DNA of 64,000 nt, from the NCBI GenBank assembly GCA_963766645.1, contig CAVYAY010000003.1:416554-480553 (forward strand). The letters run 5' to 3'. The notes under the pieces were generated by a model. It ran no database searches and was not told where the DNA came from. It saw nothing but the letters and a program-made list of their open reading frames with translations. Shown here piece by piece: positions 5,493 through 29,242 of this stretch. The first letter of the stretch is position 1; each line of letters opens with the position of its first letter. The stretch comes from an uncultured Chloroflexia bacterium (lineage in GTDB: Bacteria; Chloroflexota; Dehalococcoidia; DSTF01; WHTK01). Position numbers and translations under genes: made by a program.

Positions 5493-6024
5493 CTACTCAG
5501 CCGGGCTGCTCGCCGGCGCCCCCACCGGGAATAACGACGACAGGTAAATCACGACCGCCACCTTCCCATCGTTGCGCGCCATGTGAACCATCCCCGGCGT
5601 CTCCAGCACCGCGGTTCCGGGCGTCAGGTCCACCGTCTCACCAGCTCCTACCGTCTGGCTACGCGCCGACGCCGTTCCCGAATCATGAGTCACCTGCCAC
5701 CTCGCCCTCGATCACAAAGTAAGTCAACGTCCCCTCGACGATGACTGCCTGCTGCAACCCCGGGTGCGTGTGCGGCGCTATCTCCATCCCCGCCGGGATA
5801 ATCACGCGCGTCAGCTGGAGTAGCTGACCCGCCGCGCTCGCCGGCTCCCCCTCCTCGATGACCTGGCGCGTGATTGCATCGATGCCGTCCGCCGGCTGCA
5901 ACACATCGCCGCGACCGCCATCATCGTCACCGCCGCAGGCCGCAACCAGCAGTCCCAGCGCCAAGACCGCGACAACCGTCAGACCGAAGACGCGCCCCAT
6001 CATCAACTTGCCCCTCTGTCGCAT
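5493..6024 (-). CDS. Cupin-domain lipoprotein, split by one frameshift near 5690 in this assembly
   Basis: N-terminal piece 5683..6024 has a signal peptide with lipobox (LLVAAC) and a cupin motif (PHTHPG). C-terminal piece 5493..5693 in another frame completes the barrel (...TPGMVHMARNDG...). The frame switch must lie within about 6 nt of 5690. Confidence 0.7.
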
Positions 6025-6030
6025 GACGGC

Positions 6031-6570
6031 CTACTCCTCCAGCTCGAAACGCTCCCCATTCACCGTCACCTGCAGCTCCACGGGCGTCGGCTTACGCAGC
6101 GCCGCTATCGTGAAGCAGCTCGCCTCCGCCAGCCTCACCAGCTGCTTCACGCGCTCGGGCGGCTCGTCGCTGTCCAGCGAAAGCTCCGTCGTCAGCGAGT
6201 CCGCGAAGGCCTCGATGTCACCCGCCAGCACCGACCCGGTCCGCGAATAGAGCCCGTGGACCTTGATGTTCGCGTTGCGAAACTCGATCTTTAGACCCCG
6301 TGCAACCTGCACGAGCTGAGTCGCCAGTCAAAACCCAACAGCGATCGTGAAGTAGCTCAGCGGCGAGGGCGCCGTGTCCGTACCGCCCAGGCGCGCGCCC
6401 TCGTCGCAGCGCACCGCAAACCCGCCGACGGTCCCTGTCTTGAGGTGGTCTTCGAGCAGTGTCACCTCGGCCAGAAAGTACGGCCCCTGGCGTCCGTCGT
6501 CTCGCTGCGGCATGGCGTAATCCGGGTCCCTCGGCATCGGCGCGGGGACATCGTTCCACTGATTCGTCAT
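6031..6570 (-). CDS. OsmC/Ohr-family peroxiredoxin-like protein with an in-frame TGA (6328..6330) at the peroxidatic Cys position; candidate selenocysteine protein
   Basis: Track ORFs 6328..6570 and 6031..6312 share one frame and are separated only by TGA. Joined, ...TAPSPLSYFTIAVGF-[TGA]-LATQLVQVARGL... matches the OsmC motif around the first Cys. The second Cys motif (AEASCF) is retained. Confidence 0.7.
6299..6313 (-). promoter_or_regulatory. Putative bacterial SECIS hairpin downstream of the OsmC-like TGA
   Basis: The mRNA reads UGA-CUGGCGACUCAGCU-CGUGC-AGGUU-GCACG. That is a perfect 5-bp stem, extendable by U.G and C-G pairs, with a GGU-containing apical loop about 23-27 nt from the UGA. 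It resembles E. coli fdhF GUUGC-AGGUC-UGCAC as I recall it. Confidence 0.55.
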
Positions 6571-6653
6571 GTGTGCCTCCTGACGCCGCCCAGTATAGGG
6601 TGGACTCAGCTTGGTATGATGTCGGGCGTAACGTTACGTAAACGAGGCCGCCG

Positions 6654-7466
6654 GTGACCCCGCCCAAAGCTGTCCTCATCGCCCTCATTGCCTTCGCCGC
6701 GATGTCCACCGCCGGCTACGTGACGGCCAGCTTTGCCCTGCTGGGCGCTGACGAGCCCAATACGACGCACGCCGAAAGTCGCATCTCTGTCGTCGGAAGC
6801 TCGCTGCTCGGAGCCCCGCAGCGCCAGAACCGGACGCTCCTCGAGCTCACCGCGACGGACTCGCCCACCGCAACCCTGACCGCCACCGCGGAACCGTCTG
6901 CCACGCCAACCGAGATGCCGCCCACAGCCACACCCGAATCACCGACCGAAACGCCGGAACCACCGACGCCAACCCTCGAGCCGCCCACCGCGACGCCCGT
7001 ACCTCCAACTCCAACGCCTGAACCGCCGACGCCCACGCCCGTACCTTCAACACCAACGCCTGAACCCCCGACGCCCACGCTAACTCCGTTACCGCCCACC
7101 GCTACGCCAACGCAAGTCCCGCCGCCACCTGCCGGCTCCGGTCTCGTGCTCGGCAGCATCACGCCCTACGCCGACTCCCTCGCCGGGTCGAATATGGGCT
7201 GCAGCGGCGCCGGCCCGTACGACCCCGGCGACGCCACGGTCATCGCTGTCGGGCCCCAGCACTACGACGACTGGCCCTGCGGCACGCAACTCGGCATCTG
7301 CGGCATCGACGCCAACGGCATCATCACCGGCTGCATCGTCGGCGTCCGCCAGGACTCTTGCCCCGGCTGCACTGAGAACCACCTTGACGTTTCCCGCGCC
7401 GCCTTCGAAATCATCTGCGGCCCCGCTGCCAACCGCTGCAACGTCGTAGTCACACCACTCTCGTAG
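6654..7466 (+). CDS. Secreted/anchored protein with a Pro-Thr-rich linker and a C-terminal RlpA/expansin-like double-psi beta-barrel (DPBB) domain
   Basis: N-terminal hydrophobic anchor (VLIALIAFAAMSTAGYV). Long EPPTPTP repeats. The C-terminal Cys-rich segment ...DSCPGCTENHLDVSRAAF... resembles DPBB/barwin-like domains. Confidence 0.65.
   Translation: MTPPKAVLIALIAFAAMSTAGYVTASFALLGADEPNTTHAESRISVVGSSLLGAPQRQNRTLLELTATDSPTATLTATAEPSATPTEMPPTATPESPTETPEPPTPTLEPPTATPVPPTPTPEPPTPTPVPSTPTPEPPTPTLTPLPPTATPTQVPPPPAGSGLVLGSITPYADSLAGSNMGCSGAGPYDPGDATVIAVGPQHYDDWPCGTQLGICGIDANGIITGCIVGVRQDSCPGCTENHLDVSRAAFEIICGPAANRCNVVVTPLS
6880..7130 (+). repeat. Imperfect tandem nucleotide repeats encoding the (E/V)PPTPTP linker
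   Basis: Repeating units such as acgcccgtacctccaactccaacgcctgaaccgccg / acgcccgtaccttcaacaccaacgcctgaacccccg are visible in the sequence. Confidence 0.8.
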
Positions 7467-7524
7467 CCAGCCAACCAGCCTCGGCGACTCACCAACGTCC
7501 AGTCGTCTGGCCAGGTCAGCGAGT

Positions 7525-7548
7525 GTAGCGGGAGCGCAGCTTCTAAGG
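7525..7548 (+). repeat. R1 element, internally deleted mini-copy
   Basis: gtagcgggagcgcag|cttctaagg joins the R1 5' end directly to the central ttctaaag motif (compare 31257-31320). Lies in a convergent intergenic gap. Confidence 0.5.
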
Positions 7549-7595
7549 CTCCGTCTCATCGATCGAGGGGCGCGTGAGAATCAGCCCCTCGGGCT

Positions 7596-8561
7596 TCACA
7601 TCTTCAGCAGCCGCTTCGCATTCCCGCTGAGGATCTTCTCCTTGTCCTCCGAAGACACCTGCAGCGACTCCATCCACTCCGTCCCCGGCGGGTTCTCCAC
7701 GTACGGATAGTCGATCGAGTACAGGATGCGGTCGATCCCCATCTCGAGCATGCTGCATACCAGCGCCGGCGTCGAAAAGTTCCCGCTCGTCGTGATCCAG
7801 AAGTGCTTCGCGAACAGCTCCTGAAACTCGATTGGCGCGTTGCCCGGCCGTTGCAGCGCCATGTTGATCCGCCACAGCAGGAACGGCAGGCCTTCGCCCA
7901 TGTGACCCAGGATCAGCTTTAGGTTCGGAAACTCCTCGAACGCCCCGCTCAGCACCATCCGGACCGCCTGCGTCGCCGTCTCAACCGTGAAGCCCCACGC
8001 CGCCGTCAGCAATCCCGGGTACTTAGACAGGTAGTCGCGATAATAGGTATCCACCACGGCACGCTCCGGCACCGCCGGATGCAGGTAGATCGGCACGTCC
8101 AGTGCCGCCGCGCGCTCCAGGATCGGCCAGAACCGCTGGTCGTCGAAGAACACACCATTTGTCAGGCCGTGCACCATCGCGCCCTTGAAGCCCAGCTGCT
8201 TCACCGTACGCTCCAGCTCATCCGCCGCCGGGCCTGGCTCAGCCGTCGGCAACGCTGCGAAGCCGGCGAACCGCGTCGAGTGAGCCGCCACCGTCTCCGC
8301 CAGCCGGTCGTTCACTTCGCGTGCCAACGTGATCGCCTGCTCGCCCGACAGCCGCTGCGTCGAAGGCGCCCCGTGCGACAGCACCTGCACGTCGATTCCC
8401 GCCTCGTCCATCTCACGAAGGCGCAGCTCGCCGGTATCCTCCAGCCGCTTCCGCACTTCCGACTCCGAAGCGCCGCCCAGCACGGTCGGATACGTCGCCA
8501 CCAGCGCCGCATCGTAGTAGTGCTCCTCCAACGCGATCACAAACTTCCCGGTAATAGCCAT
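7596..8561 (-). CDS. Amidohydrolase_2 family protein (ACMSD / gamma-resorcylate decarboxylase-like)
   Basis: 321-aa ORF. The N-terminal FVIALEEHYY motif is typical of non-oxidative decarboxylases of this family. C-terminal ...YSIDYPYVE. Confidence 0.8.
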   Translation of the reverse strand: MAITGKFVIALEEHYYDAALVATYPTVLGGASESEVRKRLEDTGELRLREMDEAGIDVQVLSHGAPSTQRLSGEQAITLAREVNDRLAETVAAHSTRFAGFAALPTAEPGPAADELERTVKQLGFKGAMVHGLTNGVFFDDQRFWPILERAAALDVPIYLHPAVPERAVVDTYYRDYLSKYPGLLTAAWGFTVETATQAVRMVLSGAFEEFPNLKLILGHMGEGLPFLLWRINMALQRPGNAPIEFQELFAKHFWITTSGNFSTPALVCSMLEMGIDRILYSIDYPYVENPPGTEWMESLQVSSEDKEKILSGNAKRLLKM

Positions 8562-23087: not shown

Positions 23088-23131
23088 ATCAACCTCCAAT
23101 CGTCTTTCATCGCTAAGGTCCGGTTTCCGTA

Positions 23132-23188
23132 CCACTCATCCTGAGGCTCTCGCAAGCTAGCCCTGAGCACCTCTGAAGGGATGAGTGG
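23132..23188 (+). repeat. Inverted repeat (10-bp arms CCACTCATCC / GGATGAGTGG) of the tcatcctgag-type module
   Basis: The perfect arms at 23132-23141 and 23179-23188 lie upstream of the LVIVD gene. Confidence 0.55.
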
Positions 23189-23329
23189 CCCAGAACTCCG
23201 GCCAAACGTGATACGCCTCCGCACTGCGTCCCGACACCATCGCGGATCCCTACCCCCATTCCGTCATCTCCTGTCAGCTCACCAAACTCACTACCAGCGC
23301 CGCGTCATTACCCAACGCCGGCAGGCGTC

Positions 23330-23452
23330 GTGGGGGCGCAGCCCCTGCGGGGGAGTCTGAGGGGTCTCCCCTCAGGATGAGCGTTAGATAAAGCGAAGCG
23401 CCCTGGCCCGCCCGACAGGAAGGGCGTAGGTCGCGAAGCCTTCGAGGCGCAG
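23330..23452 (+). repeat. R1 interspersed element, full copy A
   Basis: gtgggggcgcagcccctgcgggggagtctgaggggtctcccctcagg...aagcgaagcgcc...cgacaggaagggcgtaggtcgcgaagccttcgaggcgc. Confidence 0.8.
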
Positions 23453-23472
23453 CGGTTCACGCCGTGCCCGCT

Positions 23473-24645
23473 CTACCCCCACAGCGCCTTGCTCGCCATC
23501 TCAGCCCCCTCGGCCAGTGCCTTCAACTTCGCCCAACCGATCTGCATGTGCACCCGGTTTCCCATTCCGCAGTCCGTCCCCGCGATCACGTTCTCCTTGC
23601 CCACCAGCGACGCGTACAGCTTGATCCGGTCCGCCACCAGCTCGGGGTGCTCGACCACGTTGCTGGCGTGGCTCACAACGCCCGGGATCAGGATCTTGCC
23701 CTCGGGCAGCTTCACGTCCTGCCACACCTTCCACTCGTGCTCGTGCTGCGGGTTCGCCGCCTCCACCGAGTATGCCTCGGCGTCCACCTGCAGCATCAGA
23801 TCGACCACGTGCTTCAGCGGCAGGTCATGCGTGTGCGGGCCATGCCAGCTACCCCAGCAGATGTGGTAGCGCACCCGGTCCGCCGGGATCCCCTGCAGCG
23901 CGTGGTTCTGCGCGTCGATGCGAAGCTGCGCGAACTTGCGATACTCCTCGATCGACGGGTTCGGCACGATCATGTCGTACGTGTCAGGCAAGCCCGGGTC
24001 GTCCAGCTGCAACACGAACCCGGCGTCGACGACCGCCTTGTACTCCTCGCCTATCGCCTCCGCCAGCGCGAAAAGGTACTCCTCGTCCGTCTTGTAGTAC
24101 TCGTTGTAGAAGAAGTGCTCCAGCCAGCCCGGCGCCAGCACGCACATGAACGTCTCTTCCGGCTTCACGCCCGACTGCGCCAGCGTCTCCTTGAAAAGCG
24201 CGACGTCATTCTTGACCTCGTCCTGGCCGATGTACTTGATCGGCCCGCTGACGACCGTCCGGTCCCGCTGGCCGAAACCGCCGCGCGTGCCGCCAATGGT
24301 CAACGAGTCGTAGAACTCGGCAAACTCGATGCGCTCGTTCGTATGGCCCGACATCATTGCCGCTTCGCCTTCTCTTACGGGCCGAGACGAAAGGCCCGTC
24401 ATCCGACGGCTGTAATACGCCAGCGAGAAGCCAATTTTCCCCAGCTCCCCATCGCTGATGACGTCGATCCCCGCCTCGTCCTGCTTGTGGATCACGTCGA
24501 CCATCTCGCGTTTGATCTGCGGCATGATCGCGTCGATATCCATCGAATCGCCGCGCTGGATCGCCCGCGTCTTCTCCTGCAGGTCGTCCGACCCGGCCAG
24601 GCGCCCCGCGTGCGTAGTCAAAATCCGGTCCGTACTCCGCTTCAT
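23473..24645 (-). CDS. Stand-alone MetE C-terminal-domain-like protein (paralog of 15025..16185)
   Basis: MKRSTDRILTTHAGRL... at ATG 24645. Shows HICWG and DCGMG motifs, and both paralogs end in LWG. Confidence 0.8.
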   Translation of the reverse strand: MKRSTDRILTTHAGRLAGSDDLQEKTRAIQRGDSMDIDAIMPQIKREMVDVIHKQDEAGIDVISDGELGKIGFSLAYYSRRMTGLSSRPVREGEAAMMSGHTNERIEFAEFYDSLTIGGTRGGFGQRDRTVVSGPIKYIGQDEVKNDVALFKETLAQSGVKPEETFMCVLAPGWLEHFFYNEYYKTDEEYLFALAEAIGEEYKAVVDAGFVLQLDDPGLPDTYDMIVPNPSIEEYRKFAQLRIDAQNHALQGIPADRVRYHICWGSWHGPHTHDLPLKHVVDLMLQVDAEAYSVEAANPQHEHEWKVWQDVKLPEGKILIPGVVSHASNVVEHPELVADRIKLYASLVGKENVIAGTDCGMGNRVHMQIGWAKLKALAEGAEMASKALWG

Positions 24646-24657
24646 GGCGTCCCTCAT

Positions 24658-24888
24658 CTAGTCATCGTAGCGGCGGGGTACCGCGTATCTGCGCCGAAGT
24701 CTACACCCGCTAACCTGTTCGCCCGCGAAGGTAAATTCGTTGGGCTGACCACCGCTAGTTGAACGTATGGCGCCGTAGACGTCGTAGTCCAAAGTCGTGT
24801 CCACGTCGCCGTCCTGGCCCATCGGCGCCATGGCAGAGTCAGGAGTTTTCAGCTTGACTCGCGAAATGTCACCGCGCCGCTCGACCAA
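24658..24888 (-). pseudogene. Rhs/YD-repeat core-tail fragment (orphan remnant)
   Basis: ...TLDYDVYGAIRSTSGGQPNEFTFAGEQVSGCRLRRRYAVP... resembles the terminal YD repeat and the F.G(Q/E)..D...GLYYLRARYYDP region of Rhs cores. It is truncated against the MetE-like gene. Confidence 0.5.
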
Positions 24889-25217
24889 AGAACGGCAACG
24901 AGCGCTAGCGCAAGAGGTGGCAAATGGAAGGGATCAGAGAAGATCACATACAGAGTATTGAGAAACAACAACGGTAGGCCTCCCAGCGCGAGGCAAAGTG
25001 TCTCGTGGCTTTTCGCTCTTGCCGCTATGAATATCGCGATACTCAAGGATCCATAAACGAACAGGAATACGCCGACTCCCGCCCAACCATAGCCAGGTAC
25101 GCCGATGTTCTCCCAGATGCCGATGAGCATTCCACTAACCACCGCGAGCCCGGCTACTGTAAGCGGCGATGTTATCTTCCGAGCTTCCTCACCATTCGTC
25201 ATTACATTCGCTGGCAA
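24849..25217 (-). CDS. Hypothetical 4-TM membrane protein in the low-G+C islet (possible immunity protein)
   Basis: 122-aa ORF with four hydrophobic helices. Hand count gives 50 G+C per 100 nt at 24941-25040. Confidence 0.5.
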   Translation of the reverse strand: MPANVMTNGEEARKITSPLTVAGLAVVSGMLIGIWENIGVPGYGWAGVGVFLFVYGSLSIAIFIAARAKSHETLCLALGGLPLLFLNTLYVIFSDPFHLPPLALALVAVLWSSGAVTFRESS

Positions 25218-25524
25218 TATTCTGCCCTAGAACAGAGCTGCTCGAGTTACCAGAGTAGCGGATATCACTGACGTTAACGAAGCCGCCCCCGCCCGGACTT
25301 AGGCCGGCAGTGAAGTCAACGGACACAGTAGCGTCGATGGGATCCAGCCCTGGAATGCCTTTGCCGCCGAAAAGTCGCCCCTCGCTGGTGAAGGTCAGGT
25401 CCACGTTTGCCTCATCCTGATTCTGAGTTATGCTGCCGCCTTCAGCTTTCCAGCCATAGTTCGTCTCTGGCTGATCAACAGACGCAGACACCAGAGAAGT
25501 GCCGTCCGCGCAACGCCACGTCAC
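25189..25524 (-). CDS. Hypothetical protein in the low-G+C islet (possible orphan toxin C-terminal domain)
   Basis: 111-aa ORF. The in-frame upstream extension reads ASGVFDTRGLV, a weak DPxGL-like junction. No family recognised. Confidence 0.4.
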   Translation of the reverse strand: MTWRCADGTSLVSASVDQPETNYGWKAEGGSITQNQDEANVDLTFTSEGRLFGGKGIPGLDPIDATVSVDFTAGLSPGGGGFVNVSDIRYSGNSSSSVLGQNIASECNDEW

Positions 25525-25590
25525 CAGACCCCGCGTGTCGAAAACCCCAGAGGCTCACGCCATTCATCGTGAGCCATCGGCCGCTCAGCC

Positions 25591-25700
25591 GAGACGAAGC
25601 AATCTCGCCCCCTGTCACTCCCAGACGTGCCCAATTTGCGAGCCCAGGAGCCCGCCCGACAGGAAGGGCGCAAGACGCGAAGCCTCGACGCTCCGAAGAT
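25591..25700 (+). repeat. Composite repeat: gacgaagcaatctc module plus R1 3'-half copy
   Basis: gagacgaagcaatctcgccccctgtcac..., then gcccgcccgacaggaagggcgcaagacgcgaagcctcgacgctccgaag, which matches the R1 3' half. Confidence 0.6.
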
Positions 25701-25741
25701 AATCGCCTCGGCTCCATCCCTTCACGACTCCAGCAGGGGAA

Positions 25742-25870
25742 GTGGGGGCGCAGCCCCCGCGGGGGGAGTCTGAGGGGTCTCCCCTCAGGTCTCAGGTTGA
25801 AAAGAAGGCGAAGCGCACAATCCCAAGCGACAGCGGGGTACAGGACGCGAAGCCTTCGTCGCCACGAAGT
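25742..25870 (+). repeat. R1 interspersed element, full copy B
   Basis: gtgggggcgcagcccccgcggggggagtctgaggggtctcccctcagg...ggcgaagcgcacaa...caggacgcgaagccttcgtcgcc. Confidence 0.8.
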
Positions 25871-25938
25871 CCGCCCAACGCTCGGCCGTCTTCGGCCCCT
25901 CCGTCGACGGAGAGGGGGCGCGCGGCAGCGGGGTGAGG

Positions 25939-26987
25939 TTACCCCGCCTCGTCCCGGTACAACCCCAAAGCCCGAAACACCGGCTCATCCGTAAAGCTGA
26001 AAAGGTAAGCCGGATGGCTCGCCGACAGGTTCACATGCTCGTGCCACGCCCACCCCGGCACCACGAAAACGTCCTTCGAATCCCACTCCAGCGTCTCGCC
26101 GTCCACCACCGTCGCCCCCTGCCCCTCCACCACGTGGTACACCTTGCTGTTCGTCTGCCGGTGCCGCGCCGTCCGCTCGCCCGGCCGCAACACCTGCACG
26201 TAGCACGCGATCGTCGGCATCACCGGTCCGCCGGTCGCCGGGTTCGTGTACTCCAGAATCACGCCGTCGGTCGCGCTCCCCGCTTCGCCTTCCGCCAGCT
26301 TGTCCAACGCCGCCTTCGCCTCCGACCAGGGGTAGTGCCACAGCGGCGAATGCGCCGCCTCGTGCGACTCCCACGCCGGCTTCAAAGCCGGGAAGCCATA
26401 CTTCACCAGCGACGAATCGACGTCTTCCTTCGTCTTCTGCGACTCCTCCGGGTACTGCTCCCGGAAACCCGCCTCCAACACACCGACCAGGGGCGAGTCC
26501 AGCCCATCCAGCCAGATCATCGGCGAATCCGAGTCGTTAGCGTGGTCGTGCCACGTCCAGTTCGGCGTCAGCACCAGGTCGCCCGGCAGCATCGGGATCG
26601 TGTCGCCGTTGACCACCGTATACCCGCCCGTGCTCTCGATGATGAAGCGCAGCGCCGCCGCCGTGTGCCGGTGCGCCCGAGCGATCTCGCCCGGCCCGAC
26701 TACCTGGACGTTCGCCACCAGCGTGTTCGTCGCGCCGCGGCCCGTCCCCGGGTTCACGCAGCAGATCACGCGGCGCTCCGCCTCTTTGGTCCCGACAAGC
26801 TCCAGCGCCCGCAACGCCTGCGGCCGCAGCTCCGACCACCGCCAGCGATACGGCTGCAGCTTGCTCGTGTGGCTCCTCGCGGCGCCTCCGGCCGCGTCCA
26901 CAACGGCGCCATATTCAACGACTCGAGGTCGCCGTAATAAGCCTGAAGGTCAGATTCCGACGACGCGATGCTGGAGCGCTGCAACAT
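25939..26987 (-). CDS. Gentisate 1,2-dioxygenase-like bicupin, one frameshift near 26880
   Basis: The 320-aa body has two cupin modules (GEIARAHRHTAAALRF..., GERTARHRQTNSKVYHV...). The expected N-terminus DLQAYYGDLESLNMAPLW is in the adjacent frame (track ORF 26766..26987). Confidence 0.8.
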
Positions 26988-28078: not shown

Positions 28079-29242
28079 CTACCGCGCCTCGCTAATCGAA
28101 TGCAGCGTCCGCGCCTTCGCTGCCTGCGCCGACACCGCCTCCTGGATCACCCGGTCGATCACCTCCACCGACGTGACCCCCTCCAGCTCCCAGAAGTACA
28201 GCGCCAGCGACCCCGGTATTGCGTTGACCTCGTTGATGTAAACCTTCCAACCGTTCGGGTCGACCAGGAAATCAACCCGCGCCACGCCGTTGAAGTTCAG
28301 CTCCGTGTACGCCAGCCGCGCCATCTCCTGCACCCGCGCTGCTACGTCGTCCGGGATGTCGGCCGGGATCACCCGCCGCGCCGCCGCCATCCCATCCTGT
28401 TTGCCACCCCGCAGATATTTCGTCGCGTAGTCCAGCACCTCGTCGTCTTTAATCGGGCGCTCGCACCGCGACACGTAGACGCCGCGCGTGTCCCGCAGCA
28501 CCGACACGTTGATGTCCATCCCGCCGTCGACCCCGCGCTCGATGATGCAGCGCCGGTCGTACGCCAGCACCGTGTCCACCGCAAACGCCAGCTCGTTCGC
28601 CGCGCCGACTCGAGACACACCAATGCTTGATCCTAATGTGGCCGGCTTCGCGTACACCGGCCAGCCCAGCATCGCCGCCTTCTCAACGATCGGTCCCTGC
28701 TCCAGCCCCCACGACGCCCGGTCGATCCAGAACCCGTCGACCACCGGCAGCCCCAGGCCTCTGAACGCCGCCTTCGCCGCGATCTTGTCCATCGAGACCG
28801 CCGCCGACGTCATATTCGGCCCCACGTAGGCCACGTCTGCCAGCTCGAAAACACCCTGCAACGAACCGTCTTCGCCATGCGTCCCGTGCATCACCGCGAA
28901 CGCCACGTCCACCTCGAGCGGTGCGACGCGCTCGCCGATTCCCGGCGTACTGCGCAACGTCGAAAGCAGACGGCCCTTCTCCGCCGAGAGCAGTACCCGG
29001 CGTCCCTTGTCGCGGGCAAACGCGTCGAACGAGGCCGGGTTCAGCGGCAGCCCGGCATGCACCGACACGTCGAACTCAGGCACCAGGAAGTAGTCGCCCT
29101 TCTCCGAGCAGTACACCGGCAGCAGGTCGTACTTGCCACGGTCCATCACGTTCATGACCTGCGCCGCGGTCACGATTGACACGCCGTGCTCCACGGACCG
29201 CCCGCCAAAGAACACCGCGACCTTGAGCCTCCCCTGATTCAC
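28079..29242 (-). CDS. ddl: D-alanine--D-alanine ligase family protein
   Basis: 387-aa ORF. N-terminus KVAVFFGGRSVEHGVSIVTA and ATP-grasp body (...HGTHGEDGSLQG..., ...VNEVNAIPG...). Confidence 0.9.
   Translation of the reverse strand: MNQGRLKVAVFFGGRSVEHGVSIVTAAQVMNVMDRGKYDLLPVYCSEKGDYFLVPEFDVSVHAGLPLNPASFDAFARDKGRRVLLSAEKGRLLSTLRSTPGIGERVAPLEVDVAFAVMHGTHGEDGSLQGVFELADVAYVGPNMTSAAVSMDKIAAKAAFRGLGLPVVDGFWIDRASWGLEQGPIVEKAAMLGWPVYAKPATLGSSIGVSRVGAANELAFAVDTVLAYDRRCIIERGVDGGMDINVSVLRDTRGVYVSRCERPIKDDEVLDYATKYLRGGKQDGMAAARRVIPADIPDDVAARVQEMARLAYTELNFNGVARVDFLVDPNGWKVYINEVNAIPGSLALYFWELEGVTSVEVIDRVIQEAVSAQAAKARTLHSISEAR

Follow-up and report, generated by a model that had tools for sequence, protein, structure and literature searches.

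What is a patch of low-G+C DNA doing between two metabolic genes of a high-G+C bacterium, and what are the three small open reading frames (ORFs) on its minus strand? The patch lies at positions 24658-25557 of a stretch of contig CAVYAY010000003.1 from an uncultured Chloroflexota bacterium (GTDB lineage Dehalococcoidia; DSTF01; WHTK01). This full 64-kb stretch, which we call the window, was analyzed together with the rest of the assembly and compared with relatives (n = 30). Our answer, to which we assign a probability of roughly 0.8, is that the islet is a horizontally acquired, nonfunctional leftover from an orphan array of Rhs polymorphic toxins. The homologies described below support a reading of this relic as a truncated toxin followed by an intact immunity-type gene, which encodes a membrane protein and is the only complete gene of the islet. 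A first-pass annotation had seen Rhs remnants and a possible orphan toxin-tip/membrane-immunity pair here, and this idea is backed by homology and by conserved gene order, with the qualification that the pair must be downgraded to a relic fragment.

The hand counts on which that annotation based its view of the patch, 50 G+C per 100 nucleotides (nt) at 24941-25040 against 69 per 100 at 28081-28180, were both exact on recount. That the patch is compositionally foreign is confirmed by two further comparisons: the islet has the lowest G+C content among the 700-nt stretches of the window, and it differs from the flanking genes in G+C at third codon positions (GC3), which is 0.61 for the 111-amino-acid (aa) ORF, 0.58 for the 122-aa ORF, and 0.70 for the Rhs stub, compared to 0.87-0.90 for the flanking MetE-like, dioxygenase, and LVIVD-repeat genes. 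Over 24658-25557, the G+C content is 56.9%, at the 2.3rd percentile of 900-nt segments of the genome (mean, 64.2%; standard deviation, 3.3).

Comparison with relatives defines the borders of the islet. On the left, the DNA homology of the window to G007, the closest relative, and to G015 stops at 24709-24707, and on the right, 25565-25627 matches the syntenic intergenic region of G007 (78%; E = 8e-8), which means that both sides consist of intergenic DNA common with relatives. No DNA match to 24710-25564 was found in the 30 relatives, although both flanks are shared, and there is no second copy of the islet in its own genome. G007 has 91% nucleotide identity in the flanks and lacks the islet. 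Since the edges abut sequence shared with relatives, the composition is un-ameliorated, and the closest relative is without the islet, the lineage-specific acquisition of a fragment is favored, and we infer that the DNA arrived as a fragment and was not trimmed later. The competing explanation is that a complete ancestral Rhs locus between the dioxygenase and MetE-like genes was whittled down in situ by deletions. It would fit with the variability of this site across G006, G007, G015, and G014, with two other decayed core stubs in the genome, and with the patchy distribution of Rhs genes in the genus, but the islet sequence is kept at the site in 0 of 30 relatives, the closest one included, the un-ameliorated GC3 speaks for a recent arrival, and the ancestral intergenic DNA is present on both flanks. 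We therefore consider in situ decay to be unlikely.

All three ORFs of the first-pass annotation exist where it had placed them (25524-25189, 25217-24849, and 24888-24658), and their stop-to-stop frames are 121, 125, and 91 aa long. The first ORF is 111 aa from a GTG at 25524 and 71 aa from the ATG at 25404 that is chosen by gene callers. When its 121-aa frame was searched with phmmer against 1.84 billion representatives, the only match besides itself that we accept is a single real relative, P0004 (E = 2.9e-19; 53% identity), in which residues 203-299 align with query residues 16-119. BLASTP lengthened the alignment to P0004 residues 190-299, i.e., the last 110 residues, after DPTGL, and the identity of the 111-aa ORF to this tip is 46-53%. 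P0004 is a 301-aa metagenomic protein with the Rhs-associated core TIGR03696 (77.8 bits; cut-off, 32.5), and it carries both LRARYYDP and a DPTGL junction at about residue 145. Two other phmmer matches, to the TIG/PKD giants P0005 and P0006, were rejected as artifacts, as one weak 27-residue match was summed over 17 tandem repeats.

The ORF is a remnant of a toxin tip of this kind. It has lost about 45 residues from the N terminus of the domain, the DPxGL aspartyl-protease junction, and any core; there is an in-frame stop upstream at 25557-25555, and beyond the truncated tip lie ancestral intergenic DNA and R1 repeats and no core stub or DPxGL of its own. The upstream residues VFDTRGLV had been taken for a weak DPxGL junction, which was a misreading, since they pair with P0004 residues 190-197 (LFDLYTTA) in the interior of the toxin domain, about 45 residues after the real DPTGL. 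No match to the tip came out of a profile search of the PDB, and neither the remnant nor the P0004 tip contains hydrophobic or glycine-zipper segments. In its intact form, the tip domain would presumably be toxic.

The gene for the membrane protein and the toxin remnant overlap at the 3' end of the latter. Its earlier description as a four-helix membrane protein agrees with the four hydrophobic segments that we see, and a low-confidence AlphaFold2 (AF2) model (predicted local distance difference test [pLDDT] score, 59) gives a helical bundle only. In a search of 5.8 billion clusters, only its own product (P0001) and one relative, P0002 (116 aa; 50% identity), were found. The 122-aa ORF aligns over its full length with its two homologues, which are 44-50% identical to it, and the three-way alignment has 39 invariant columns. 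Because the invariant residues P18, T20, A25, and G29 stand upstream of the gene caller's start at M30, we argue that the real start is either the TTG at 25217 (122 aa) or the ATG at 25202 (117 aa). The family is extremely rare, with 3 loci in the 5.8e9 clusters and in scans of GTDB and JGI contigs; scanning the alignments of both families, tip and membrane protein, against GTDB genome contigs and JGI metagenome contigs gave no further relatives. Gene callers mishandle this gene: the call from M30 in the window genome (93 aa; P0001) drops the conserved first helix, and the homologue L021:6903-7244 is left uncalled in its metagenome contig.

The contig L021 places the two families side by side. 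It encodes P0004 at 6001-6906, followed at 6903-7244 by a 113-aa homologue (44% identity) of the membrane protein seen in the window with a 4-nt overlap with the P0004 stop and at 7258-7683 by a 141-aa ORF that is another Rhs core stub, covering TIGR03696 positions 1-36. The order of toxin tip, membrane protein, and next core stub is identical in L021 and in the window. The G+C content in L021 is 0.46 for the tip and 0.45 for the membrane gene in a contig of 0.58, and a lower G+C content is usual for exchangeable toxin/immunity cassettes. The membrane gene is linked to the tip in both loci with a readable context, the window and L021, which are two loci only. From this linkage, we find it rather likely that the tip family has its cognate immunity protein in this membrane protein.

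A membrane protein of this size could also be an ordinary housekeeping or transport protein that is next to an Rhs tip only incidentally. This alternative draws on a 116-aa four-helix protein of G005 (L029; G005:C3:343591-343884) that gives a weak match (E = 8e-8) to the profile of the transmembrane (TM) family and lies in a non-Rhs context of native G+C content, between luciferase-like monooxygenase and RibD_C-like genes, as well as on faint, subthreshold matches to other TM families. The G005 protein could be a remote chromosomal relative; alternatively, the likeness may be purely hydrophobic and compositional, stemming from the transmembrane segments. Against the alternative, both close homologues with visible context are directly preceded by this toxin tip and lie in low-G+C DNA of foreign character, and a family known from 3 loci is extremely rare. 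We judge an incidental neighbor to be quite unlikely.

The third ORF, of 76 aa (91 aa from stop to stop), had been read as a fragment that resembles the last YD repeat and the LRARYYDP tail of an Rhs core. The first part of this claim was right and the second was not. In a six-frame search of the 30 relatives, the 76/91-aa frame matches contig C118 of G007 (60% identity; E = 2.7e-16), where a 236-aa ORF with a TIGR03696 score of 83.4 bits (cut-off, 32.5) reads DGDVDTTWDYDVFGAVRNLTGSQPNDFTFAGEQVDGSTGLQYLRARYYDPEVGRF…DPLGL, and a local hidden Markov model (HMM) built from eight Rhs core tails gives 52 bits over residues 32-78 (DSAMAPMGQDGDVDTTLDYDVYGAIRSTSGGQPNEFTFAGEQVSGCR) of the 91-aa frame, so the YD-type part is a real Rhs core tail. 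TIGR03696 itself gave no match to the 76-aa or 91-aa frame even at an E value of ≤10, and the six-frame family search of the genome was likewise silent; the stub holds only about the first 40 of the 76 model positions and ends with …FAGEQVS, before LRARYYDP/DPxGL, with no DPxGL present. The candidate LRARYYDP tail, LRRRYAVP, was rejected: G007 and G015, which do not have the islet, share this sequence, and including it did not improve the HMM score. The 15-residue tail scored no better than chance, its score being matched or beaten by 112 of 300 shuffled tails. Since homology to the islet-less G007 and G015 starts exactly at 24709-24707, the tail is the noncoding leader of the MetE-like gene and not Rhs; the leader, aligned with G007 and G015, reads GGTGTAGACT…(ATG), and the lengths of the indels in the G015 copy are not divisible by three.

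The matching region of G007 is worth describing for itself. In L014 (G007:C118), positions 419-1665 of the minus strand hold the short 236-aa Rhs tip ORF, in which the core tail leads into DPLGL and then into a tip that weakly matches a GntR-like helix-turn-helix; a 169-aa acidic ORF follows it. The acidic ORF is probably the immunity gene of this tip ORF, and with the pair, the closest relative would have an orphan-type module in intact form.

With three ORFs assigned, the notion that these are chance ORFs in an AT-richer intergenic patch, unrelated to Rhs, can be set aside. The lack of a match to any curated family would be expected of such ORFs, but three independent and significant homologies, all of them to components of Rhs arrays and in the same order, already refute it, and we give it practically no credence.

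The remnant cannot work as an Rhs toxin, as about 45 N-terminal residues, the self-cleavage junction, the core, the YD shell, and the export domain are all gone. The first-pass annotation had itself named the lack of an Rhs/YD-repeat gene in the genome as evidence against its proposal. For the YD shell, this lack is what we find: the own assembly (3.34 Mb; 4 contigs) has 0 matches to the YD-repeat shell family PF05593 (RHS_repeat) and has core stubs only. There is consequently nothing onto which the tip could be grafted, and a truncated tip in a genome with no shell indicates a relic and not a part of a working Rhs system. PF05593 matches were found in 8 of the 17 congeners sampled and also in G018, a genome of the sister genus, in open frames that reach 1403 aa within the genus and 1578 aa in G018. 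A tblastn search of the own genome with the 1578-aa G018 Rhs and six other Rhs tails returned three short stubs only, one of them being that of the window. Directly after the second stub, on contig C1, is a 290-aa IS110-like transposase ORF on the opposite strand. The third stub belongs to a relic (G000:C3:324619-325426; G000 is the window genome) that shares the layout of the islet, with a small membrane ORF in a patch of 54-56% G+C and then the frameshifted core stub; this membrane ORF (C3:324619-324981) has two to three helices and no homologue among the 5.8e9 clusters.

An islet that is broken as an Rhs toxin could still be a working toxin/antitoxin (TA)-like module, in which a 111-aa (or 71-aa) product made from an internal start is toxic and is neutralized by the membrane protein. 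Both frames are open and overlap in the manner of translationally coupled pairs, and it has been reported that an orphan rhs acts as a type II TA module (PMC7043789) and that orphan Rhs tips of Salmonella behave as TA modules. The remnant, on the other hand, is about 45 N-terminal residues short of its only homologue, no promoter-like site was found in 24400-26100, no start codon has an obvious ribosome-binding site, and a word-based search with the 111-aa ORF among the 5.8e9 clusters found only the ORF itself and no stand-alone homologue of such a size. We regard a working module of this kind as very improbable.

Several observations weigh against the interpretation of the islet as an Rhs relic. 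None of the three ORFs matched Pfam or NCBIfam, even at lenient thresholds. The assignment of toxin and immunity leans on a single homologous locus, L021, and for one more TM homologue, the neighboring gene is not readable. For the full toxin tip, the AF2 model made from a 2-sequence alignment has a pLDDT of 39, which is too poor for a fold search. The toxin remnant has an open frame of 121 codons with zero internal stops, and a frame that is still open means that the remnant is either young or still constrained. Finally, the completeness score of the assembly is 67%, and an Rhs gene may therefore sit on unassembled DNA.

Orphan arrays are made up of modules of the type [core stub - DPxGL - C-terminal toxin][immunity gene] that pile up behind a full-length rhs gene. 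They arise through Rhs C-terminal displacement, in which recombination at the conserved core tail brings in new tips with their immunity genes, while the older tips are displaced downstream and orphaned. The islet would be a piece of about 855 bp from such an array, beginning in the middle of a toxin tip, spanning a complete immunity-type gene, and ending in the middle of the next core stub. It would represent a dead end of the displacement process, with a beheaded tip, no core for recombination, and no shell in the genome. Displacement and orphan rhs modules have been described in Enterobacteria and Snodgrassella (Jackson et al. 2009, PMC2935791; Koskiniemi et al. 2014, PMC3967940; Steele et al. 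2017, PMC5727410). Like these modules, the islet has the order of toxin tip, small immunity gene, and next core stub and a foreign composition. Unlike them, it is not preceded by a full-length rhs, the assembly as a whole is devoid of a YD shell, its tip is truncated and without its own core stub so that it cannot recombine back onto a core, and the piece stands alone between two metabolic genes. Orphaned immunity genes that are left after toxin pseudogenization have been documented (PMC5727410), and the islet resembles that case in that its toxin is pseudogenized and the immunity gene is left behind.

If any part of the islet still has a function, it would be the gene for the membrane protein. 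The acquired interbacterial defense (AID) systems of Bacteroidales are composed of orphan immunity genes. As in these systems and in the case of Serratia orphan immunity, the islet gene could protect against the toxins of neighbors; unlike orphan-immunity and AID arrays, the islet holds a single putative immunity gene and no mobile-element machinery. As an orphan immunity factor, the membrane protein could neutralize a cognate toxin delivered by Rhs-armed neighbors. Orphaned immunity genes are also documented in a report on Serratia Rhs NADase immunity (PMC10539506), and the islet is similar in having an intact immunity-type gene without a usable cognate toxin. It shows the combination that marks an orphan immunity gene, namely, an intact immunity-type ORF beside a truncated tip, with no other copy of the islet in the genome. 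That the membrane protein is still expressed and protective here is nevertheless doubtful, and we can only tentatively entertain a live orphan immunity gene that protects an Rhs-less organism against an undescribed, all-beta, membrane-directed Rhs toxin family of its neighbors.

Membrane-acting toxins with integral-membrane immunity proteins include the pore-forming colicins (Cai/Cei-type immunity) and the Rhs effector Tse5 with Tsi5. Like the Cai/Cei-type and Tsi5 immunity proteins, the immunity candidate of the islet is a small multihelix membrane protein, and this analogy suggests that the toxin may act at or in the cytoplasmic membrane. Unlike colicins and Tse5, the remnant and the P0004 tip have neither hydrophobic nor glycine-zipper segments, the tip is predicted to be all-beta (with low confidence, in the pLDDT-39 AF2 model), and there is no sequence similarity. 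The full-length Rhs of G018 has a hydrophobic, signal-like N terminus, DUF6531, and 12 RHS-repeat matches, and no PAAR or VgrG-type domain was found in it; with such an N terminus and without a PAAR-type domain, delivery in this clade is probably not of type VI. Proteins of the WapA type are reportedly Sec-exported YD-repeat toxins of Bacillus subtilis. The G018 Rhs is like WapA in its signal-like N terminus, DUF6531, and RHS repeats, and by this analogy, Rhs delivery in the clade is probably Sec dependent and WapA-like; unlike WapA, the window has no delivery part at all.

The neighborhood of the islet and the coordinates of all features are given in Table 1. The MetE-like gene on the left has 86-91% nucleotide identity in G007 and G015. 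It is a stand-alone gene and belongs to a very large paralogue family; across the genus, there are dozens of DNA matches of 68-77% identity per genome, and the own genome has at least 8. The interval from the LVIVD-repeat gene to the gentisate-dioxygenase-like gene (window 23105-25939) is a variable spot in the genus. In G014 (L024), 120 bp separate the LVIVD gene from the dioxygenase, and the MetE-like gene is absent; G015 (L005) has the MetE-like gene only, at 286 bp from the dioxygenase; G007 (L004) has the MetE-like gene and about 740 bp of tandem or dispersed repeats; and G006 (L023) has the MetE-like gene and a 427-aa TPR-like repeat protein encoded on the other strand. The G007 locus contains, at 2724-3130 of L004 (G007:C305), short tandem repeats that are PQRKQPKPHR-like in one frame together with R1-like pieces. 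The islet had been presented as flanked by R1 repeats. The copies are real, but they say nothing specific about the islet, since BLAST finds about 70 matches to this dispersed repeat across the genome and since the MetE-like gene stands between the islet and the left copy. An R1-mediated excision or insertion was rejected as uninformative for the same abundance and because the "empty" site of G014 is without R1.

Table 1. Positions of the islet, its parts, its surroundings, and the Rhs stubs of the genome (window coordinates unless a contig is named)
Feature	Position	Strand	Basis
Foreign low-G+C insert of ~855 bp, probable fragment of an Rhs orphan toxin/immunity array	24710..25564	-	Homology of relatives ends at both borders; GC3
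5'-truncated Rhs C-terminal (toxin-tip) domain remnant	25189..25554	-	Homology to P0004 tip
Intact four-helix membrane protein, putative cognate immunity protein	24849..25217	-	Two homologues; P0004-type tip linkage
Rhs-associated core-tail stub (…DSAMAPMGQDGDVDTTLDYDVYGAIRSTSGGQPNEFTFAGEQVS), start of next orphan module	24710..24840	-	Homology to G007:C118; local HMM
Read-through tail of the 76-aa ORF (GCRLRRRYAVPRRYDD, then stop), leader of the MetE-like gene	24658..24709	-	Common with G007 and G015
MetE-C-terminal-like gene, native flank; likely true start, ATG 24645	23473..24657	-	Pfam Meth_synt_2, E = 8e-10
R1 dispersed repeat copies	Half copy, 25650-25685; full copy, about 25727-25860; further copy, 23315-23441	.	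Repeat families D1-D4
Rhs stub 1	Window stub		tblastn
Rhs stub 2, core-tail pseudogene over three frames (…YVYGLGLISIYDGSEMTY… / …SYTYDAYGNVRSESGAGTEFSF… / …GEQTDPNGLDFLRARSYDPEIGRF…)	G000:C1:24370-24901		tblastn
Rhs stub 3, frameshifted core stub (…KFTGEQVDGTS…)	C3:324929-325240		tblastn

In conclusion, the compositional anomaly at this locus is explained as a scrap of an interbacterial-warfare locus. The relic is of an ordinary kind, and its toxin and immunity families are undescribed. As the general phenomenon is well known, the gain lies in a better annotation and not in a new principle: two hypothetical ORFs receive their first context-based annotation, one as the tip of an Rhs toxin and the other as its putative immunity partner in the membrane, both outside Pfam and NCBIfam. 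It is conceivable, though we would not count on it, that the pair (25189-25554 with 24849-25217, and P0004 with L021:6903-7244) would define a new polymorphic-toxin/immunity family with three loci. For the organism, our findings mean that the genome lost or never had an Rhs shell in a genus in which YD repeats occur in about half of the congeners sampled, and if the immunity gene is active, this would be a case of defense without offense in a poorly studied high-G+C lineage.

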